Source: Candidatus Omnitrophota bacterium (lineage in GTDB: Bacteria > Omnitrophota > Gorgyraeia > JAFGHF01). Taken from it: a stretch of DNA of 64,000 nt. A program made the position numbers and the translations under genes. Below the pieces are notes generated by a model. It was not told the origin of the DNA. It was given only the letters and a program-made list of their open reading frames with translations, and made no database searches. Below are positions 2,600 through 53,383 of this stretch, in pieces. Position 1 is the stretch's first letter. Each line of letters starts with the position of its first letter. The stretch lies in the NCBI GenBank assembly GCA_020341815.1, contig CP070837.1, forward strand, positions 465,743-529,742, in the 5' to 3' direction.

Positions 2600-4672
2600 T
2601 TACACCGAAATTAACTCTACATTCTTGGAACGAAGTCTCTCTTTGACCTTTTCGCGAATAAGCGAATGCTGATGGCTTTTAAGCTCCGGGTCACGCTTCA
2701 CTAAGGAAAAAGCACTATCCCGCGCAAGCTCCATCAACTCCATATCCTTAACGATATTTCCCAGCTTCAATTCCGGCAGGCCGTGTTGGGCCGGACCAAA
2801 AACTTTCCCCGGGCCGCGAATATCCAAATCTTCCTGGGCCAGGCGAAAGCCATCCTGGGTATTAACAAGAGCGTCAATGCGCAACTTCGCCTTCTCTGTT
2901 GCACCGGCTTGAGAGACTAAAATGCAGTAAGACGGATGCGACCCCCGGCCAATCCTTCCTCTTAACTGATGCAGCTGGCTCAGGCCAAATCTCTCTGCAT
3001 GCTTAATCACCATTACCGAGGCATTGGGAATATCTATACCCACCTCAATCACAGTGGTAGCAACCAGTATATCTATCTTACGATTTTTAAAATCCTGCAT
3101 GGCTTTTTCTTTTTCTAACCTTTTCATCCGGCCGTGAATAAGCCCGATCCTGCTTGTGCTAAATTCACTCTTACGTAAACTCTCATACATCTCGGTAGCA
3201 GCTCTAAGCTCCAAACGGGGACTGTTTTCAATCAGGGGATAGACAATATAGGCCTGCCTGCCGCCAGATACTTCCTGACGGATAAAATTATATACATCTT
3301 TGAGGGCGCTCTCTTTAACCCAGACAGTGGAGATAGGCACTCTCCCCTTCGGCAGCTCCTTTATTGTGGAGATATCCAAATCCGCATAAAGAGTCATAGC
3401 CAATGTGCGCGGGATGGGCGTGGCGGTCATTATCAGGCAATCCGGCCTCCCTCCCTTTTTGCGCAAAGAAGACCTCTGCAGGGTGCCAAACTTATGCTGT
3501 TCATCAATTACTACCAGCCCCAACTTCTTAAACTCTATCTCTTTTTCAATCAGGGCGTGGGTGCCTACAACTATATCTACTGTCCCTGATTTTATATCCT
3601 CAAGCGCCTCCAGTTTAGCTTTAGGGCTCATGCTCCCTATCAAAAGCCCCACACTGACATCCAAAGGTGCAAATAATTTACTTAACAAAAGATAATGCTG
3701 CTCGGCCAGAATCTCCGTAGGAGCCATAACTGCGGCCTGAAATCCGGATTGCACACTTAAAATGAGGGCATAAGCGGCCACTATGGTCTTTCCTGAGCCC
3801 ACATCCCCCTGCAGAAGCCTGTTCATTTCTTTTGAGGATGCCATATCCTCTTCTATCTCCTTAATGGCCTTATTTTGTGCGGAAGTCAACTTAAAAGGCA
3901 AAATCTTTAAAAAATCTTTTATCAACTTCTCTTCTGTTTTATGGGTGATGCCCAATTCTCTCTTGTTGCGCCAATATCTCTTCAGGGCAAAAATCATCTG
4001 CAGCAGAAAGAACTCATCAAACACCAGTCTGCGATAAGCCGAACTCTCCGAGTTGCTGTCATTAGGAAAATGGATATGCCTTATAGCCAGAGTTAAAGGC
4101 AAGAGATTTAACTTCTTCTTCAATTCATAAGGCAGCATATCCGGAATAAAGGAAGTAAACTTTTGAATTGTCCTGTCAATGACAGTGCGCAGGTATCTCT
4201 GTTTAAGATTGGCAGTCAAAGGATAAATGGGGACAATTCTGCCTATATGCAAAGATGAATCTTTCTCAAACTCAGAAATAAGTTCAAAATCAGGGGTATT
4301 CATCTGCAGCAAGGGGCGCCTGGCGACCTTGCCATAGAGGATTAACTTATCTCCTATCTTAAAATACTTTTTCATAAAGGGCTGATTAAACCAGATAGCC
4401 GAAAGCACACCGCTCTCATCCCCCACGGCAATCTCGAATATGGAAAGGCCTCGCCTGCTGCGCCGAAAGCTCAAGTTGATTATCTCTCCTTTTACCGTGG
4501 CAAAATCATTCGCCTGCACTTCAGCAATAGGGGAAAACGTTCTCCTGTCCTCGTATCTGCGGGGAAAGTAATAAAGAAGGTCGCCAACGGTATAGATATT
4601 CAAGCGATTCAATAACTTGAATCTCGCCGGCCCCACGCCTTTGATATATTGAACGGAATCTTTTAAATGCAT
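2600..4672 (-). CDS. recG: ATP-dependent DNA helicase RecG
   Basis: 690 aa; wedge/OB N-terminal domain; helicase motifs GDVGSGKT, DEQHKFG, TATPIPRTL; RecG C-terminal region. Confidence 0.9.
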   Translation of the reverse strand: MHLKDSVQYIKGVGPARFKLLNRLNIYTVGDLLYYFPRRYEDRRTFSPIAEVQANDFATVKGEIINLSFRRSRRGLSIFEIAVGDESGVLSAIWFNQPFMKKYFKIGDKLILYGKVARRPLLQMNTPDFELISEFEKDSSLHIGRIVPIYPLTANLKQRYLRTVIDRTIQKFTSFIPDMLPYELKKKLNLLPLTLAIRHIHFPNDSNSESSAYRRLVFDEFFLLQMIFALKRYWRNKRELGITHKTEEKLIKDFLKILPFKLTSAQNKAIKEIEEDMASSKEMNRLLQGDVGSGKTIVAAYALILSVQSGFQAAVMAPTEILAEQHYLLLSKLFAPLDVSVGLLIGSMSPKAKLEALEDIKSGTVDIVVGTHALIEKEIEFKKLGLVVIDEQHKFGTLQRSSLRKKGGRPDCLIMTATPIPRTLAMTLYADLDISTIKELPKGRVPISTVWVKESALKDVYNFIRQEVSGGRQAYIVYPLIENSPRLELRAATEMYESLRKSEFSTSRIGLIHGRMKRLEKEKAMQDFKNRKIDILVATTVIEVGIDIPNASVMVIKHAERFGLSQLHQLRGRIGRGSHPSYCILVSQAGATEKAKLRIDALVNTQDGFRLAQEDLDIRGPGKVFGPAQHGLPELKLGNIVKDMELMELARDSAFSLVKRDPELKSHQHSLIREKVKERLRSKNVELISV

Positions 4673-11119: not shown

Positions 11120-11527
11120 TTATGGCAGAGGCAGGGGCCAGGTGCCTTCAAAGGGAGGGCCACCTTCATCAAGAGTAATAGTCCTGCCATTGTAGCTACC
11201 GCTCCTTCTTGTAGCGGTAGCATCAAAGGTATCCGCAGTAGCAGTTACAGAATAATCCCAGTTTCGCTCGTCCTTAGCTTCCAAATACAACCTCAATTGG
11301 GCATTAATTGTAGAGATGTTATTTACCGGCGCTTCAGTCGGCCAATAAGTATCTTCCTCCGTGCGGTAAATCCTTTCTCCGGTGCGGATTTGCTTCAAGG
11401 CTACCATTGCTTCCGTGGCCTTGGTGCCTTCAACGGCCTTGGTAAGCAAAGGAAGGCTCAAGGCTGCCAGGATTCCAACGATTATAACGGTAGCTATAAC
11501 TTCTGTAAGCGTAAAAGCGCTTTTCAC
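11120..11527 (-). CDS. type IV pilin-like protein
   Basis: 135 aa; MKSAFTLTEVIATVIIVGILAALSLP prepilin leader plus hydrophobic helix. Confidence 0.75.
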   Translation of the reverse strand: MKSAFTLTEVIATVIIVGILAALSLPLLTKAVEGTKATEAMVALKQIRTGERIYRTEEDTYWPTEAPVNNISTINAQLRLYLEAKDERNWDYSVTATADTFDATATRRSGSYNGRTITLDEGGPPFEGTWPLPLP

Positions 11528-21485: not shown

Positions 21486-22379
21486 TTATAATATCTCCAG
21501 TGCCTTTTTTACTGTATTATAATGAATAAGCACCGTATCATTTATATCCTGAGCGTATCCTCCGCCAAACACTACCGCTACATGTGCCTTACTTTCCTTT
21601 GCCAGGGCAAAAACAAACTCATCTCTCCTTTCTAAGCCATCCAGAGTAAGCCTAAGCGCCCCCAGCTGGTCTTTAAAATAAGGGTCTGCCCCGGCAATAT
21701 AAAAAACCAATTGCGGTGCGAAATCCTTAAAAATCCTGGGTAATTCTTTTTCCAAGGCATCTAAATATTCTTTATTACCGCTGCCATCGGCCAGGCCGAT
21801 ATCTAAATCACTGGGAGGCTTAATTAAGGGATAATTATTCTCTTGATGGATTGAAAAAGTAAAAACCTCTTTCGAATCTTTAAATATATGGGCATTCCCA
21901 TTGCCCTGGTGCAGATCACAGTCTACTATCATTATCTTGCGCAACTTCTCCTGCACCTGGCAATATCGAGCTGCGCAGGCCACATCATTCAAAACACAAA
22001 AGCCTTCTCCGTGGTCGGCAAAGGCATGATGAAATCCACCGCCTAAATGAACGCAGGATGTCTCTTTCAGGGCCAGCTTTGCGGTAAGGATTGTCCCGCC
22101 CACGCATATGCGCGAAGCCTGAACCAGAGGTTTGGAATAAGGCAGCTCTAAAGTAAATATCTCCTGCGGCGATAAAGTTCCTTGAGTCAGCTTATCAAGG
22201 TACGCTTTTGTATGAACTAAAAGAAGCTCTTCCTCTGAGGCAAAAGGCGCAACAATAAAATCCTTATCCGGAATAATCTTTTCTTTTCTTAGCTTTTCAC
22301 GGATGAGGCGAAATTTAACGGTAGGAAAGACGTGCGCGCCAATATTTACTTCATAAGCATCTGAATAAACTACCTTTAT
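21486..22379 (-). CDS. histone deacetylase / acetoin utilization (AcuC/HDAC) family amidohydrolase; start codon unresolved
   Basis: Table ORF 21486..22103 begins at a GTG, but the same frame stays open to 22385 and encodes an HDAC-like N-terminus (YSDAYEVNIGAHVFPTVKFRLIREKL...). There is no ATG/GTG/TTG in those 94 codons. Confidence 0.65.
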   Translation of the reverse strand: MKVVYSDAYEVNIGAHVFPTVKFRLIREKLRKEKIIPDKDFIVAPFASEEELLLVHTKAYLDKLTQGTLSPQEIFTLELPYSKPLVQASRICVGGTILTAKLALKETSCVHLGGGFHHAFADHGEGFCVLNDVACAARYCQVQEKLRKIMIVDCDLHQGNGNAHIFKDSKEVFTFSIHQENNYPLIKPPSDLDIGLADGSGNKEYLDALEKELPRIFKDFAPQLVFYIAGADPYFKDQLGALRLTLDGLERRDEFVFALAKESKAHVAVVFGGGYAQDINDTVLIHYNTVKKALEIL

Positions 22380-22389
22380 CTTATCTCAC

Positions 22390-22656
22390 CTATCCCTGCA
22401 TCTTCGGCAGCAATTCTTCTACAGCCTGAACTATCTGCTCCCATTTTTCCGCATCGTGAACGGTAAATTTTTGCTTTCTCTTCCAGCCGTCCTTCTTACG
22501 CTGCCAGAGATATAAACAGACCTGTTTTCGTCCCCAGGATTCAATTAATACCGCAGCTGCCCACCAGCCAAAAGCCTTACTTAAAGTGCGGTAATCGACT
22601 ACCTGCAAAGGAGGCTCAATAGGAATCTTTTCTTCTTTTGCTCTTCCTTCCTCCAT
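22390..22656 (-). CDS. hypothetical Trp/Lys-rich small protein
   Basis: Table ORF 22390..22683 starts at a GTG inside the upstream repeat element. Likely true start is ATG at 22654-22656 (MEEGRAKEE), preceded by GGGGGAGGG. Confidence 0.4.
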   Translation of the reverse strand: MEEGRAKEEKIPIEPPLQVVDYRTLSKAFGWWAAAVLIESWGRKQVCLYLWQRKKDGWKRKQKFTVHDAEKWEQIVQAVEELLPKMQG

Positions 22657-22670
22657 GAATACCCTCCCCC

Positions 22671-22883
22671 TTTTAATGAGCACGTAACTTATGGAACATA
22701 GTGAGCATAAGTCGCTGTGCGAATTAAACCCCGTACCAAAATACTGCCAAGTTTCATATTTTTGGCATAACTAATGCCATATAGCATTAGTTTACTCTTA
22801 GTTTCAACTGTTGAAGTATTTTGGTTCGGGGTAAGTTCGGACATAGTCTTATGTTCGCTTCGCTCCATAAGTCTAGCCCTTAC
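22671..22883 (-). repeat. structured repeat element, family C, copy 1 (about 200 nt; putative 5' leader RNA or MITE-like)
   Basis: About 80% identical to 34930-35145. 17-bp outer stem (ACCCCGTACCAAAATAC / GTATTTTGGTTCGGGGT) plus nested hairpins (TGCCAA..TTGGCA; ATGCCATATAGCAT; TTCAAC.GTTGAA). Ends at the SD of the downstream gene. Confidence 0.6.
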
Positions 22884-23087
22884 TTACTTTCTCAGTTCTA
22901 TTCTGTAATCCTGGCCTTCTTTTTCTAATTTTACATGGCCTTCTCTGGCCAGCCAACCCAAGCTCATTAAAATAGTATCGCGCGGTTTATCCAAACCGGC
23001 AACTAAATCGGCCAAGGCAGCAGTTTTCCCGTGTTCATCTAAAAAATGCCAGATATCTCCTGCCACTATTCCTAACTCCGTTATCAA
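22884..23087 (-). CDS. small hypothetical protein (winged-helix-like)
   Basis: 67 aa; no recognisable motif beyond predicted helical content. 4-nt overlap with the upstream gene. Confidence 0.35.
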   Translation of the reverse strand: MITELGIVAGDIWHFLDEHGKTAALADLVAGLDKPRDTILMSLGWLAREGHVKLEKEGQDYRIELRK

Positions 23088-33735: not shown

Positions 33736-34929
33736 TTATAAATACCGCCTTAATATTTTAGTAATATATCTATTTTCCCTAAACTTCTCCGTTTTCCAGG
33801 ATGAAGCAATTTCATGTTTATGTTTTTTCCAGAGCAAAGAATAGTTTTCCCAGCCGATAACAGGCCCTTCCCTTCTTACCCAGGGCGGGTTGGGCAGATA
33901 TTGATAAATGCCGTTGGGATAAACGGAAATATCCACGGTTTTATAAGTCCAGTAGGTCCAGTGGAAATTAAACTTCCTGAAACAATCCAGAACATCCCTT
34001 AAATATCTCAATTCCCCATAATATTTCGGCGCACGGAAGTTTATCCCGAACTCACCCACATAAATAGGTACCTGCCACTTTTGCTTAAGCTTGTGATACT
34101 CGGAAAGCATCCGGTAGACTTTTCTTTTGTCCCAGTATTTTCCCTCAATATATCCGGGGTATCTTAATTGACGCTGAAAATTAAAGGTAAAGTTTATCGG
34201 TTGATAAAAATGGATACTATAGGCGATATTTTCACCCTTTGGCTTTCCTAGGGGCTTAAGCTGCTGGCCCCAGAGATTTGCCTCTAAGAAAATTATGTGA
34301 TTTTTATCGACCTTCCTGATTTCCTTAACTACTCTTTGATAAAATCTGCATAAATCTTGAGGATTCTTTACCACTGCCTCATTGAGTACGTCATATCCGG
34401 CAATCGCGGGTTCATCCTTATAATGGCCGGCAATTTGCCGCCAGAGGGAAAAGCACTCTTCCTGAAATCTCTTTTTTTCCCAGAGAAGGACCTCACCACT
34501 TGAGTCGCTGTGCCAGTCGGGATTTTGCGCACCGGGAGCGGCGTGCAAGTCAAGGATACAATATAGTTTTGCTCTCTTACACCAACTTATCAGTCTATCC
34601 AGATAATCCCAGCCGTTATCCTGTTGGATGAGCCGATAGTTAAAAGGCGCGCGCAGACAATTCGCTCCCATCTTTTTGATCCGCAGGATGTCTTGATAAG
34701 TGATGAAGTTTTGCCGATATAAATATTTAAAGTTTTCTAATTCTTTTCTCCCATTGACCCGGGCAAATTCCTGTTTAACTTGATGGGCGGGGATATTGCG
34801 TCCGTGCAGGATGTAACCTTCCATCATCAGCCAGCCGCCCAGATTAACCCCGCGAAGATATATCCTTTTTCCTGAACAGTCGATGATATCTTTGCCTTCA
34901 ACGCGAAGCATCGATAATTTCCTATTCAA
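33736..34929 (-). CDS. glycoside hydrolase family 5 (cellulase-like)
   Basis: 397 aa; GANCLRAPF, LDLHAAPGAQN, catalytic acid/base in YDVLNEA and nucleophile in VGEFGI, the (beta/alpha)8 GH5 pattern. Table start is TTG; internal ATG (MLRVEGKD) has AGGA spacing. Confidence 0.75.
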   Translation of the reverse strand: MNRKLSMLRVEGKDIIDCSGKRIYLRGVNLGGWLMMEGYILHGRNIPAHQVKQEFARVNGRKELENFKYLYRQNFITYQDILRIKKMGANCLRAPFNYRLIQQDNGWDYLDRLISWCKRAKLYCILDLHAAPGAQNPDWHSDSSGEVLLWEKKRFQEECFSLWRQIAGHYKDEPAIAGYDVLNEAVVKNPQDLCRFYQRVVKEIRKVDKNHIIFLEANLWGQQLKPLGKPKGENIAYSIHFYQPINFTFNFQRQLRYPGYIEGKYWDKRKVYRMLSEYHKLKQKWQVPIYVGEFGINFRAPKYYGELRYLRDVLDCFRKFNFHWTYWTYKTVDISVYPNGIYQYLPNPPWVRREGPVIGWENYSLLWKKHKHEIASSWKTEKFRENRYITKILRRYL

Positions 34930-35145
34930 TCCCTACCCCCTTTAATGAGCACATCGCTTAGCGAACAAAGTGAAGCTAAGTGATAAGTGCGAATTGAACC
35001 CCGAACCAAAATACTGCCAAATATTACACTTTGGCAAAACTCGTGCCATATGGCATTAGTTCGCTCTTAGTTTCAACCATTGAAGTATTTTGGTACGGGG
35101 TAAGCTCGGACCTATAAGTTATGTCGCCTTAGATTAACTAAAGCT
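34930..35145 (-). repeat. structured repeat element, family C, copy 2
   Basis: Homologous to 22671-22883 (ttaatgagcac...gcgaattgaaccccgaaccaaaatactgccaa...tgccatatggcattag...ttcaaccattgaagtattttggtacggggtaag). Abuts the GH5 start. Confidence 0.6.
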
Positions 35146-35997
35146 TCATAACTTATGTCCTCGCTTATAAAAAGCATCTTCTATTCGAGCAAACTCCTCT
35201 AAAGAAAGATTTTCCGGACGCACCTTAATGTCTATATCTTTATCTTTCAGCATCTTCTGAATACTCTCTTTTTCTATCCCGGGTAATTTATGGCTTAAGG
35301 AATTGGGAATAGTCTTTCTGCGCTGATTAAAACAGCTATGGACAATTTTAAAAAATTGCTCCTGGTTATTCACCTTAACAGAAGGTTTTTTAAGGATGTG
35401 CAAATGGACAAAGACAGAATCTACCTTTGGCTGGGGATAAAAGGCCCTTTTGGGAATAGGAAAAAGAACTCTGCAATCCGTAAAATACTTAATCAGGATA
35501 GTAATTGCCGAATAATCCTTGCTGTTTTTCTCCGCCCTCAGGCGCTCTCCCACTTCGCGCTGAACCGTAATAAATATGTCATTTATATTTTCTCTCTGTT
35601 TCTCCAATAGATAGGTGATAATAGGAGTAGTAATATAATAAGGGAGGTTGCCTACGACCTTTAATTTATTTCTGGTAAACTTTTCCATATCTATCTCAAG
35701 GATATCTCCAGAGATAATTTCAACATTCTTATATCCCGATAATCTTTTCCGCAATATCTTAACCAAACCCCTGTCCTTTTCGATAGCCTTCAATCCTGCC
35801 CCGCTTTTAGAAAGCTCTTCCGTTAAGGCACCCAGACCCGGACCGATTTCTAAAATTTCATCGCCTGATTTTATACTTATTGCATTAATAATTTTTTCCT
35901 GTATATGTTTATCAACAAGAAAGTTCTGCCCCCGGCGTTTGCTGATAACAAGGCCTTCTTCTTTCAGAATAGTTTTGATTTCTCTGGAGCTTAGCAT
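35146..35997 (-). CDS. rsmA: 16S rRNA (adenine1518/1519-N6)-dimethyltransferase
   Basis: 283 aa; KRRGQNFLVD, EIGPGLGALTEEL, NLPYYITTPI, the KsgA/RsmA motifs. Confidence 0.9.
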   Translation of the reverse strand: MLSSREIKTILKEEGLVISKRRGQNFLVDKHIQEKIINAISIKSGDEILEIGPGLGALTEELSKSGAGLKAIEKDRGLVKILRKRLSGYKNVEIISGDILEIDMEKFTRNKLKVVGNLPYYITTPIITYLLEKQRENINDIFITVQREVGERLRAEKNSKDYSAITILIKYFTDCRVLFPIPKRAFYPQPKVDSVFVHLHILKKPSVKVNNQEQFFKIVHSCFNQRRKTIPNSLSHKLPGIEKESIQKMLKDKDIDIKVRPENLSLEEFARIEDAFYKRGHKL

Positions 35998-51969: not shown

Positions 51970-51998
51970 TTGCCAAAGCGGACAAAATATGCTATACT
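51970..51998 (+). promoter_or_regulatory. sigma70-like promoter of rpoN (TTGCCA-N17-TATACT)
   Basis: TTGCCA at 51970-51975, 17-nt spacer, TATACT at 51993-51998. SD GGAGA before the ATG at 52028. Confidence 0.5.
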
Positions 51999-52027
51999 TA
52001 GGCGAGATCATAAGTTACGGAGATAAT

Positions 52028-53383
52028 ATGGCCTTAAAACAAAGGTTGAATCTAAGGCTCACCCAGCGGCTCATTCTCACTCCTAAGATGCGCCAGGCCC
52101 TGCATATTCTCCAGCTGCCGCTTTTGGAATTAAAAAGATTCCTGCGCCAGGAGATGCTTGAAAATCCCTTCCTGGAGGAAGAAGAAATCATCGATAATCT
52201 CCTCGATAACAAACAACTCGCGCCGGACTATTCCGAGAGTGATAACTACAATACCAGCTACGGCCAGGATATCCAGAAGAAAAAAGATTATCAAGAAACC
52301 CTGGCAACATATGCCCCTTCTCTGCAGGAGCACCTCCTGCGCCAGTTAGGCTTATCAAGCCCCAACCCCATCCTTTACAAAACGGCTGAATTTATTATCG
52401 GCAATATAGACGAAAACGGCTACAGGCACTGCTCCCAGCAAGAAATACAGCAAATCTTAGGTGTCGGAAAAAGCGATATTTATAAGGCCTTAAATCTAAT
52501 TTACACGTTTGACCCGCCGGGGGCAGGGGCCGAAGACTTAAAAGAATGTCTGTTTATCCAGCTAAAACAGAAAAACCAAGAAAACTCCCTGGCGGCCAAA
52601 ATAGTCTGCAATTATTTAACGGATTTGGAAAAGAAAAAATACAGTCATCTCGCCGGCATCTTCAAGGTCCCTCTGGAGCAAATAGAGGAAGCCGTCAGGG
52701 ATATTGCAGCTCTTGAGCCTAAACCCGGAAGAACCTTTGCAAACTCTCCTAACCCTTATATTAAACCGGATATAATCCTTATAAAACAAAAAGAAAGATA
52801 CGAAATTATCATCAATGATGAAGAATTGCCCATCTTACAAATCAGCTCTCAATACAGTAGACTCCTGCAGGATGAAAAAGTCGCAATAAGTACAAAGATA
52901 TATCTTAAAAAACAGTTCCATTCGGCCCTCTGGCTAATCAAGACTGTAGGCCAGAGACAATCAACGCTTATGGAATTAGCCCGCTTTCTCGTAGAGGCGC
53001 AAAGAGATTTTCTGGACAAAGGAAAAAGGTATCTCGCCCCTTTAAGCCTGGAAAAGATAGCCAAATCAATAAAAAGGGATAAATCCACCGTAAGCAGGCT
53101 GCTTGCCAATAAATACATTCAAACACCATTTGGAATATTTCCGCTTCGGGAATTCTTAAGCCACGGAATAAAAACAAAGAAAGGCAAGCTCATCTCCACC
53201 AAAAATATAAAGGCACAAATCGAGGATTTGATTAAAGGGGAAAATCCCGAACAACCCTTGACGGATGAAAAGATTGCGCAAACTTTAAAAGAAAGAAGTA
53301 TTCCTATTGCCAGACGAACCTGCGCCAAATACCGCGAGCAGCTAAAAATCCTTCCTGCTACCCTGCGCAAAAATCCTCATTAA
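52028..53383 (+). CDS. rpoN: RNA polymerase sigma-54 factor
   Basis: Start taken at MALKQRLNLRLTQRLILTPKMRQAL (table ORF starts at 51989). Regions I-III with HTH and RpoN box ARRTCAKYREQ. Confidence 0.9.
   Translation: MALKQRLNLRLTQRLILTPKMRQALHILQLPLLELKRFLRQEMLENPFLEEEEIIDNLLDNKQLAPDYSESDNYNTSYGQDIQKKKDYQETLATYAPSLQEHLLRQLGLSSPNPILYKTAEFIIGNIDENGYRHCSQQEIQQILGVGKSDIYKALNLIYTFDPPGAGAEDLKECLFIQLKQKNQENSLAAKIVCNYLTDLEKKKYSHLAGIFKVPLEQIEEAVRDIAALEPKPGRTFANSPNPYIKPDIILIKQKERYEIIINDEELPILQISSQYSRLLQDEKVAISTKIYLKKQFHSALWLIKTVGQRQSTLMELARFLVEAQRDFLDKGKRYLAPLSLEKIAKSIKRDKSTVSRLLANKYIQTPFGIFPLREFLSHGIKTKKGKLISTKNIKAQIEDLIKGENPEQPLTDEKIAQTLKERSIPIARRTCAKYREQLKILPATLRKNPH

Follow-up and report, generated by a model that had tools for sequence, protein, structure and literature searches.

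A probably mobile, mosaic palindromic repeat between stop codons and Shine-Dalgarno sequences in Candidatus Omnitrophota

Results

Two palindromic elements among co-oriented genes

The analysed window is a 64,000-nt stretch of a Candidatus Omnitrophota bacterium (assembly GCA_020341815.1, contig CP070837.1, positions 465,743 to 529,742), and the subject of this report is a non-coding, strongly folding element of slightly more than 200 nt that occurs in it twice. The minus strand carries 60 of the 61 long open reading frames (ORFs) of the window, the sole plus-strand gene being rpoN (sigma-54; 51989-53383, plus strand), and the G+C content is 44.7%. The GC skew of the plus strand is negative throughout (-0.10 to -0.17); the gene-sense strand is G-rich, with the composition of a leading strand. 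The one-sided distribution of the ORFs, together with the uniform skew, indicates that the whole window lies on one replichore and that its genes are co-oriented. Copy 1 of the element is located between a gene for a DUF2582 winged-helix protein and a gene for an 88-aa protein, where it separates the TAA stop of the former (22884-22886) from the native Shine-Dalgarno sequence (SD) of the latter, AAAAGGGGGAGGG. Copy 2 is located between ksgA (rsmA) and a GH5 glycosidase gene. The features are listed below; U denotes the hairpin units that flank the core, and loci or contigs outside the window are cited by L numbers.

22675-22883, minus strand: copy 1, whole element (209 nt; U-left, core and U-right), with empty sites in L058, L062, L063 and L110
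22833-22883, minus strand: copy 1 U-left, in the AATGAG...GAATT orientation (U profile, nhmmer E = 1.3e-12; fold)
22728-22832, minus strand: copy 1 core (core profile E = 7e-31)
22675-22727, minus strand: copy 1 U-right, reverse complement of the U-left type (nhmmer E = 3.7e-13; fold)
22654-22674, minus strand: native target to the right of copy 1, outside the element (AAAAGGGGGAGGGTATTC and the ATG of the 88-aa gene)
34944-35164, minus strand: copy 2, whole element (221 nt; clean gap against L057)
35102-35164, minus strand: copy 2 U-left (nhmmer E = 3.8e-9; fold)
34998-35101, minus strand: copy 2 core (core profile E = 2e-30)
34944-34997, minus strand: copy 2 U-right (nhmmer E = 9e-13; fold)
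34927-34943, minus strand: native target to the right of copy 2, outside the element (AAAGGGGGTAGGGA and TTG; SD and called start of the GH5 gene)

Both elements are long imperfect palindromes over their whole length. In the alignment of the two copies, both read on the minus strand, 81.7% of 186 nt are identical, which agrees with the identity of about 80% given in a preliminary description of these loci. The other structural features reported there were also recovered. The 17-bp outer stem (CCCCGWACCAAAATACT / AGTATTTTGGTWCGGGG) is present with one internal mismatch in each copy, and these arms occur in the 64 kb only at copies 1 and 2, where chance would give 0 occurrences. The nested hairpins TTCAAC..GTTGAA, TGCYATATGGCA and TGCCAA..TTGGCA are present as well, and the shared block ttaatgagcac is the right terminus of the element read on the plus strand. 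The two loci thus stand, and only their limits had to be changed: comparison with empty sites sets them at 22675-22883 and 34944-35164. The extent previously given for copy 2 (34930-35145) had included the native SD and missed 19 nt that now code for the KsgA C-terminus and stop.

Folding was compared with that of shuffled sequence. The minus strand gave z = -7.4 and -8.1 and the plus strand z = -9.7; since both strands fold far better than shuffled sequence, this is the signature of a DNA palindrome and not of a strand-specific RNA. The Rfam scan that had been suggested for the element matched no known family: there was no credible hit at the gathering threshold over the whole window, nor at E <= 10 for copy 1, and the output consisted only of a tRNA elsewhere in the window and of chance matches to microRNA-like hairpins. 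Scans for consensus promoters and terminators gave no site common to both copies and no conserved sigma-70 match. In the core of copy 2 (35034-35048, minus strand), the sequence TGGCACGAGTTTTGC is a full match to the sigma-54 -24/-12 pattern (GG-N10-GC; TGGCAC-N5-TTGC) directed toward GH5. Copy 1 and L006 have a weaker form of the motif, L004 and L011 have it with altered spacing, and L064 lacks it; it was dropped as a feature of the family because it is not conserved in L004, L011 and L064.

Logan contigs assembled from short reads of the same organism (SRR14739666; identity 100%) are interrupted within both elements. L054 ends at window position 35032 and L055 at 22764, that is, at the same relative position in the two elements, just past TGCYATATGGCA..TGCC; beyond copy 1 the assembly restarts within the right repeat arm (L056, from 22735). 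Low coverage or the palindrome itself is the cause to which these breaks are attributed, further candidates being other copies with shared k-mers and heterogeneity. These break points are not placed as an inversion would predict.

No transposase or recombinase was found among the scanned ORFs of the window, all of which are housekeeping genes or have no Pfam match. The remaining ORFs have syntenic orthologues in relatives, and the Pfam families listed there are also non-mobile. The lack of such a gene in the window fits a non-autonomous element.

Orthologous sites in relatives are empty

At the copy 2 locus, the element is absent from L057, whose KsgA is 87% identical to that of the window and in which there is an overlap of 8 nt between ksgA and the GH5 gene. 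The comparison of the window with L057 leaves one clean block of 221 nt, ...TTTTATAA ^ GCGAGGACATAAG....GATGTGCTCATT ^ AAAGGGGGTAGGGATTGAATAGG..., on both sides of which the flanks are continuous in L057. The native right flank of copy 2, AAAGGGGGTA..., is present in this empty site, where it codes for the C-terminal KsgA residues ..YKKGVRIE with the stop and acts as the SD for the TTG start of GH5. The insertion point lies seven codons ahead of the ancestral end of ksgA. The first 19 nt of copy 2 (35146-35164) now code for a new KsgA tail, ..RGHKL, followed by a TGA stop, and the element both separates ksgA from GH5 and changes the KsgA C-terminus. Ten contigs of a more distant relative (L112-L121; 64% identity) likewise have overlapping ksgA and GH5 genes, with an overlap of 4 nt.

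The copy 1 locus is empty in L058-L063 and L110/L111, where the DUF2582 gene is separated from an 87-aa gene by 13-65 nt. In L062 the empty site reads TAA^AAAGGAGGGATTCTAATG, and the whole spacer, TAA^AAAGGAGGGATTCTA^ATG, corresponds to TAA^element^AAAAGGGGGAGGGTATTC^ATG in the window. The SD that had been regarded as embedded in the element, and that had led to the suggestion of a repeat carrying its own ribosome-binding site, is therefore only adjacent to it: for copy 2 it is the AAAGGGGGTA... of the L057 empty site, and for copy 1 the TAA^AAAGGAGGGATTCTAATG of L062. In every relative examined, the element is missing at both orthologous sites. Such empty sites mean that both copies are lineage-specific insertions or that the element was precisely lost elsewhere.

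The element is a mosaic of hairpin units and a palindromic core

Alignment of all outer parts showed the left arm of the element to be the reverse complement of the right arm. The layout is a mosaic, in which an inverted pair of hairpin units of about 53 nt (U) surrounds a palindromic core of about 104 nt with 17-bp inverted repeats at its edges. The consensus of U is AATGAGSMC, a 10-bp stem, the loop GAACGAAGTGA, the second half of the stem and GKSCGAATT. The hairpins lie 8-10 nt from each end of the element, and the termini are imperfect ATGAGSMC inverted repeats that match at 4-6 of 8 positions. In copy 1, U-left has a diverged terminus (GTAAGGGC), the stem TAGaCTTATG/CATAAGaCTA and the loop GAGCGAAGCGAA, and U-right is laid out as TTAATTCGCAC-(ACTTATG)-CTCACTATGTTC-(CATAAGT)-..GTGCTCATT. 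The corresponding layouts in copy 2 are GCGAGGAC-(ATAAGTTATG)-23-nt loop with an inner hairpin-(CATAACTTAT)-AGGTCCGAGCTT for U-left and TCAATTCGCAC-TT-(ATCACTTAGC)-TTCACTTTGTTC-(GCTAAGCGAT)-GTGCTCATT for U-right.

Over nine units, the stem of U carries two-sided compensatory changes at 6 of its 10 positions, those next to the loop being, for example, TG/CA, GC/GC and CG/CG, and the loop is conserved. This pattern shows the U hairpin to be under selection to pair. The two strands of U are not equivalent: for each of the eight units tested, the AATGAG...GAATT strand had a better fold than the complementary strand, by 2.7-7.6 kcal/mol.

The arms of the core lie at 22815-22831 and 22729-22745 in copy 1 (17 nt, one A.A mismatch), with 69 nt and three small hairpins between them, and at 35084-35100 and 34999-35015 in copy 2 (one T.T mismatch). 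Core identity between genomes amounts to 75-86%, and the inverted repeats are almost invariant. No covariation was detected in the core: its stems are near-invariant, and only the W position varies (AU in two cases, UA in two, AA in one and UU in one). The core of L064 is nearly symmetric, matching one reference at 85.6% in one orientation and at 84.6% in the other, and the orientation of a core so close to a palindrome is only weakly defined. U and core are separable, since each was also found singly in other genomes.

Insertion point and orientation

The four insertions whose junctions can be read all lie at TAA^(...GTGCTCATK)^RAAGGRGG, in one orientation. Their left junction, right end of the element and right flank are as follows.

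Window copy 1: AAGTAA^, ..CTCATT^, AAAAGGGGG
Window copy 2: TATAA^, ..CTCATT^, AAAGGGGG
L064: GGTAA^, ..CTCATG^, AAAGGAGG
L110: GTGTAA^, ..CTCATT^, GAAGGGGG

The TAA to the left of copy 1 is a stop codon, and the right neighbour of each window copy is the pre-existing SD of the next gene. On that strand, the 64 kb contain just 5 occurrences of AAAGGGGG. The GAGCAC-type end faces the downstream gene in all insertions, and the two solo units described below are oriented correspondingly; the orientation is uniform in 6 of 6 cases. Given the GC skew of the window, the same orientation with respect to transcription implies the same orientation with respect to replication. The placement may be explained either by preferred targeting of (R)TAA with a purine/G run next to it on the 3' side or by survival of insertions only between a stop codon and an SD, and the two explanations do not exclude each other. 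Removal of copy 2 regains the L057 sequence exactly, with no duplication (TTTTATAA^AAAGGGGG). From the junction sequences, a target duplication would be either absent or TAA. Inspection by eye, not a formal search, revealed no bridge-RNA-like or guide-like complementarity between the internal loops and the TAAAAAGGGGG target.

Related copies at unrelated loci

Further copies, for which a search beyond the window had been proposed, were found at unrelated loci in other genomes. A third full composite lies between DUF1329 and DUF1302 genes in L064/L065 (GGTAA^ATGAGGCC...GTGCTCATG^AAAGGAGGAACTAAATG) and was recovered by searching with a spurious 59-aa ORF that spans copy 1; a chimeric six-frame pseudo-protein of the element, used as a homologue query, gave no match. 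A short form of 83 nt was found in L110 between the TAA of tsaD and the SD of mgtC, where the orthologous spacer of the window has only 14 nt; a solo U is located at 382-433 of L110. Two solo units are present in L064, one within a 5' untranslated region (3683-3737) and one (11310-11363) whose last base directly precedes position +1 of a tRNA-Pro.

Solo U-right units are preceded by unrelated GC-rich hairpins, GGTACTGCGATTCC-TTCG-GGAATCGCAGTACC in L064 (11290-11320) and CCCTCGGCCC-ATT-GGGCCTCGGG in L110 (353-381), and the solo U-left of L064 is followed by a perfect 13-bp hairpin (3735-3790; TCCTTGACATTTT...AAAATGTCAAGGA). U may generally prefer sites beside hairpins.

Cores without U were found in L006/L045, L004/L017 and L011, with flanks that differ between genomes. 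The scan of genomes located the central ~104 nt at two loci (L004, L006) of one metagenome-assembled genome (MAG) that is labelled Planctomycetia and is syntenic with the window; 4 of its 7 matches were chance palindromes. The scan of metagenomes added L011 and recovered the L004 and L006 loci a second time, as L017 and L045, the other 43 of its 46 loci being an unrelated high-copy plant or moss repeat. The L006/L045 core has convergent genes on its two sides (ArnT-like and RNase HI), that of L011 lies between ackA and yceD, and that of L017 between an ECF sigma gene and the gene that follows it. L011 and L017 have a common SD-containing flank of about 29 nt (about 11 nt on the other side), and the core is reverse-complemented between them. 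Scans of viral contigs gave 0 matches and then 44 chance matches, none of which fitted the U profile; plasmid and phage collections contained no match to the element; and profile searches of ~254 kb of collected Omnitrophota DNA and of 108 kb more added no further copies. The family has so far been found only in uncultured Omnitrophota.

Several sequences encountered in these scans are recorded here. The 43 metagenome loci (L008-L053 except L011, L017 and L045), from moss and peat samples, contain telomere-like AACCCTAACCCT tracts and presumably derive from plants or other eukaryotes. In L003 (1160-1265), which belongs to a MAG labelled Pirellulales, the 16-nt arm forms a tight hairpin, CCCGCACCAAAATACT-cgactca-AGTATTTTGGTGCGGG, with a T-run ~9 nt later and a third, direct half-site (CCTGCACCAAAATACTCGAC) 42 nt upstream; the hairpin may have been left behind when the interior was deleted or excised, or may represent the core in minimal form. 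Between the core and the 3' end of the RNase HI gene in L006 (7440-7530, equal to L045 2660-2750) there is an AT-rich stretch with many AAAAGTT/AACTTTT repeats, for which an iteron-like and a bent-DNA tract are candidates. The only other representative-library match to the ORF query, P0148, is an unrelated 245-aa "protein" with a reiterated ILEITPNQGTET motif, and looks like a translated CRISPR-type repeat array.

Discussion

Empty orthologous sites, together with related copies at unrelated loci, are the factors that bear most directly on the nature of the element. Both loci are probably occupied by a non-coding, non-autonomous, mosaic palindromic mobile repeat of Candidatus Omnitrophota, similar in kind to REPINs, BIMEs and miniature inverted-repeat transposable elements (MITEs). 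The small non-autonomous mobile element was one of the possibilities named in the preliminary description, and it is the one borne out by the absence of the unit at orthologous sites. The element is a new repeat family, while bacterial palindromic repeats of such a kind are already known. It is not a conserved regulatory RNA, and the earlier proposal of a family of cis-regulatory leader RNAs had to be given up, because the element is not conserved upstream of orthologous genes, matches no Rfam family, shows no covariation in its core and in one case has its core between convergent genes. The reading of the palindromic core as a protein-binding operator is possible.

The element may move, or may once have moved, as DNA by means of a hairpin-recognising enzyme supplied in trans. 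The most likely mover would be a single-strand HUH/Y1 transposase of the RAYT or IS200/IS605 type acting on the lagging-strand template, as has been proposed for REPINs, and by analogy such an enzyme is a plausible, putative candidate. Judged by what is known of the IS200/IS605 family, single-strand HUH transposition fits three features: no duplication is apparent, one strand of U folds better than the other, and the copies share one orientation on a strongly replication-biased chromosome. Insertions would survive only at the junction of stop codon and SD if compact operons offer no other neutral space, and a preference for (R)TAA possibly helps such placement. Once inserted, the element would be co-transcribed and would add a hairpin of about 200 nt to the mRNA. 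Copy 2 appears in this way to have uncoupled the overlapping ksgA-GH5 pair and to have rewritten the last residues of KsgA; any effect on expression would be a side effect and not a conserved regulatory function.

Several observations weigh against this explanation. No RAYT or IS200-like gene was seen in the 64-kb window, and the mobilising enzyme is therefore purely inferred. U exceeds classical REPs in length and does not have the GTAG motif found in them, conservation within the element is highest in the spacer (core), which is not so in REPINs, and the end hairpins of the IS200/IS605 family are direct, not inverted. For these reasons the family is placed among REPIN/BIME/MITE-like repeats and is not a demonstrated member of the REP-RAYT systems. 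The number of copies is also small: the recovered set comprises no more than three full copies, a single short form, two clear solo units and three loci with a core alone, a tally that covers the loci reached by the scans, in which the source MAG was matched in neither genomes nor metagenomes. Copies 1 and 2 differ by 18%, so neither was recently derived from the other. A precise loss in all relatives, instead of a gain in the lineage of the window, is formally possible and would still imply mobility. Finally, TAA stands perfectly at both ends of both window copies, and a 3-bp TAA duplication would instead implicate a DDE transposase; the L064 copy is flanked by TAA/GAA and the L110 copy by TAA/TGA.

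The resemblance to known repeats is closest for REPINs. A REPIN consists of two inverted REPs separated by a hairpin-forming spacer of 34-110 bp, singlets of REP also occur, and a RAYT acts in trans (PMC3337134). Like the REPIN/REP sequences of Pseudomonas and enterobacteria, the Omnitrophota element has two inverted units that are imperfect palindromes, a hairpin-forming spacer and the shape of one long hairpin overall (PMC3337134). Singlets, here the solo U of L064 and L110, occur in both, and both are extragenic, non-coding, without a transposase of their own and with a hairpin kept by compensatory change. They differ in that U has ~53 nt, compared with ~20-40 nt in REP, and is flanked by AATGAG and GAATT, without the GTAG tetranucleotide of enterobacterial REPs. 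Moreover, the spacer of REPINs is poorly conserved except in its hairpin potential, whereas the core of the element is its best-conserved part and exists alone in other genomes. REP-RAYT systems have a single-copy RAYT (Y1 HUH) gene with REPs on its flanks, and their genomes hold tens to hundreds of copies; no RAYT gene accompanies the element in the 64-kb window, and its host belongs to another phylum, Omnitrophota.

The BIMEs of Escherichia coli are mosaics of REP units with intervening motifs, some of them with an IHF site. Common to both are separable repeated modules of alternating orientation, a central motif that is not REP, and a position between operon genes or at gene ends; there is, however, no sequence similarity, and the insertion point is strikingly precise (stop/SD) in the Omnitrophota element. 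The Correia elements of Neisseria have a TA duplication, defined promoters and an IHF site. With these and with the ERIC- and RUP-type MITEs, the element shares a palindromic, non-coding structure of 100-250 bp, variable presence at orthologous intergenic sites, and long co-transcribed hairpins that are able to alter mRNA processing or expression; it differs from Correia elements in that its duplication is absent or TAA and that no conserved promoter was found. Its length of 209-243 nt, the non-coding sequence, the empty sites in relatives and the imperfect terminal inverted repeats are those of MITEs in general. IS200/IS605-derived PATEs are similar in their subterminal hairpins, in having no clear requirement for terminal inverted repeats or target-site duplication, in insertion beside a short specific sequence, here (R)TAA on the 5' side in 4 of 4 cases, and in a uniform orientation relative to the replication-biased strand. 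The number of insertions compared is small, however, the end hairpins of the element are inverted copies, whereas those of IS608 are similar hairpins on one strand, and no relative of TnpA or TnpB was found here. A leader RNA or riboswitch would be conserved ahead of orthologous genes and would have a structure backed by covariation, an Rfam model or both; in the element, all core pairs but one are invariant.

A different mover would be a DDE transposase. The element would then be a MITE, a palindrome with imperfect terminal inverted repeats (ATGAGSMC) and a 3-bp TAA duplication, moved by a full-length insertion sequence located elsewhere and comparable with the IS5/PIF-Harbinger-like or TA/TAA-targeting families. 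The context TAA^G...CAT^TAA of both window copies, the triplets TAA/GAA and TAA/TGA of L064 and L110, the imperfect terminal repeats of an element that is palindromic as a whole, its shortness, its non-coding nature and its variable presence among genomes all agree with such an origin, which is nevertheless considered unlikely. At the L057 site, a TAA duplication needs an additional 2-nt indel in coding sequence, while the comparison without duplication is exact. The solo U at tRNA-Pro ends ...CTCATT^CGGGG, which means that the final T is part of U and not of a duplicated TAA. The uniform orientation (6 of 6) is not predicted for an element with symmetric ends, and no related insertion sequence was seen.

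The remaining alternatives assign a function to the repeat. It could be a cis-acting RNA module, such as a leader, a processing site or a stabiliser that provides cleavage or insulation, perhaps domesticated from a mobile repeat. This is quite improbable, even though in 4 of 4 insertions an SD directly adjoins the right end, in a fifth case this end borders exactly on the +1 position of tRNA-Pro, the copies all point the same way with respect to transcription, a GC-rich hairpin stands before solo U-right units as it does in the composite, and the U stem is kept by compensatory changes around a conserved loop. Orthologous positions do not retain the element even in the relative with 87% identity, the neighbouring genes are functionally unrelated, neither an Rfam family nor covariation in the core was found, and one core lies between convergent genes. 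U also occurs in both orientations within composites, and in U-right it is the antisense strand that folds better. An inverton, in which a recombinase flips the ~70-bp segment between the 17-bp repeats and thereby alters the downstream gene (phase variation), is suggested by the near-perfect and almost invariant inverted repeats, by the reversal of the core between L011 and L017 despite their common flanks (~29 nt and ~11 nt), by the Logan contigs that break within both window copies, and by the sigma-54-like TGGCAC-N5-TTGC of copy 2, which points downstream in a window that contains rpoN. It is very improbable. The L004/L017, L006/L045 and L064/L065 assemblies each agree in orientation, as do the window and the Logan contigs as far as these reach, a comparison of assembled contigs (three loci, two independent assemblies each) that has limited power. 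The core is nearly palindromic, with an orientation that is weakly defined (85.6% and 84.6% in L064), the copies do not share the promoter-like motifs, one core has convergent genes on its two sides, and no recombinase gene is present in the window or at any related locus. As the absence of the whole unit at orthologous sites is not explained by inversion, duplicate assemblies agree and the core is near-symmetric, the inverton was rejected as the main explanation.

It is distinctly unlikely that the element is actively targeted, and not just tolerated, at the junction of stop codon and SD (TAA^RAAGGRGG) and at the first base of a tRNA, with a fixed orientation throughout. If it were, integration would read SD-like G-runs in single-stranded or transcribed DNA, or the repeat would be a domesticated "punctuation" of operons that sets RNA ends just ahead of translation starts. 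Under both alternatives, the separately mobile 104-nt core would be a protein-binding or switchable cargo.

The probable mobile repeat adds a previously undescribed mosaic family to Omnitrophota, a phylum of small, tightly packed genomes, in which its insertions separate genes that overlap and are translationally coupled and change the C-termini of proteins, as in KsgA. The precise placement between stop and SD and the fixed orientation make it a compact test case for target choice versus purifying selection, and the family bears on whether REPIN/RAYT-like systems exist outside Proteobacteria. For annotation, a false lead to a riboswitch-like leader is removed, and the apparent SD at the end of the element is shown to be host DNA. 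Repeats of this type also break short-read assemblies of such MAGs.

Additional observations

Next to copy 1, the 88-aa gene is followed by a gap of 286 nt and then by a 205-aa ORF of the histone-deacetylase family (window 21486-22389). This ORF covers only positions 86-286 of the 298-position Pfam profile and may be 5'-truncated; in the relatives L058 and L062, an AMP-binding gene comes directly after the 87-aa gene. The comparison suggests that this region may be a second lineage-specific difference beside copy 1. The assembly GCA_964586605.1 (CAZPGX01; L004, L006, L058) is titled "uncultured Planctomycetia bacterium". Its L058 locus is syntenic gene for gene with the Omnitrophota window and proteins of its lineage group with proteins named Omnitrophota, and on these sequence comparisons the Planctomycetia label looks wrong or outdated.

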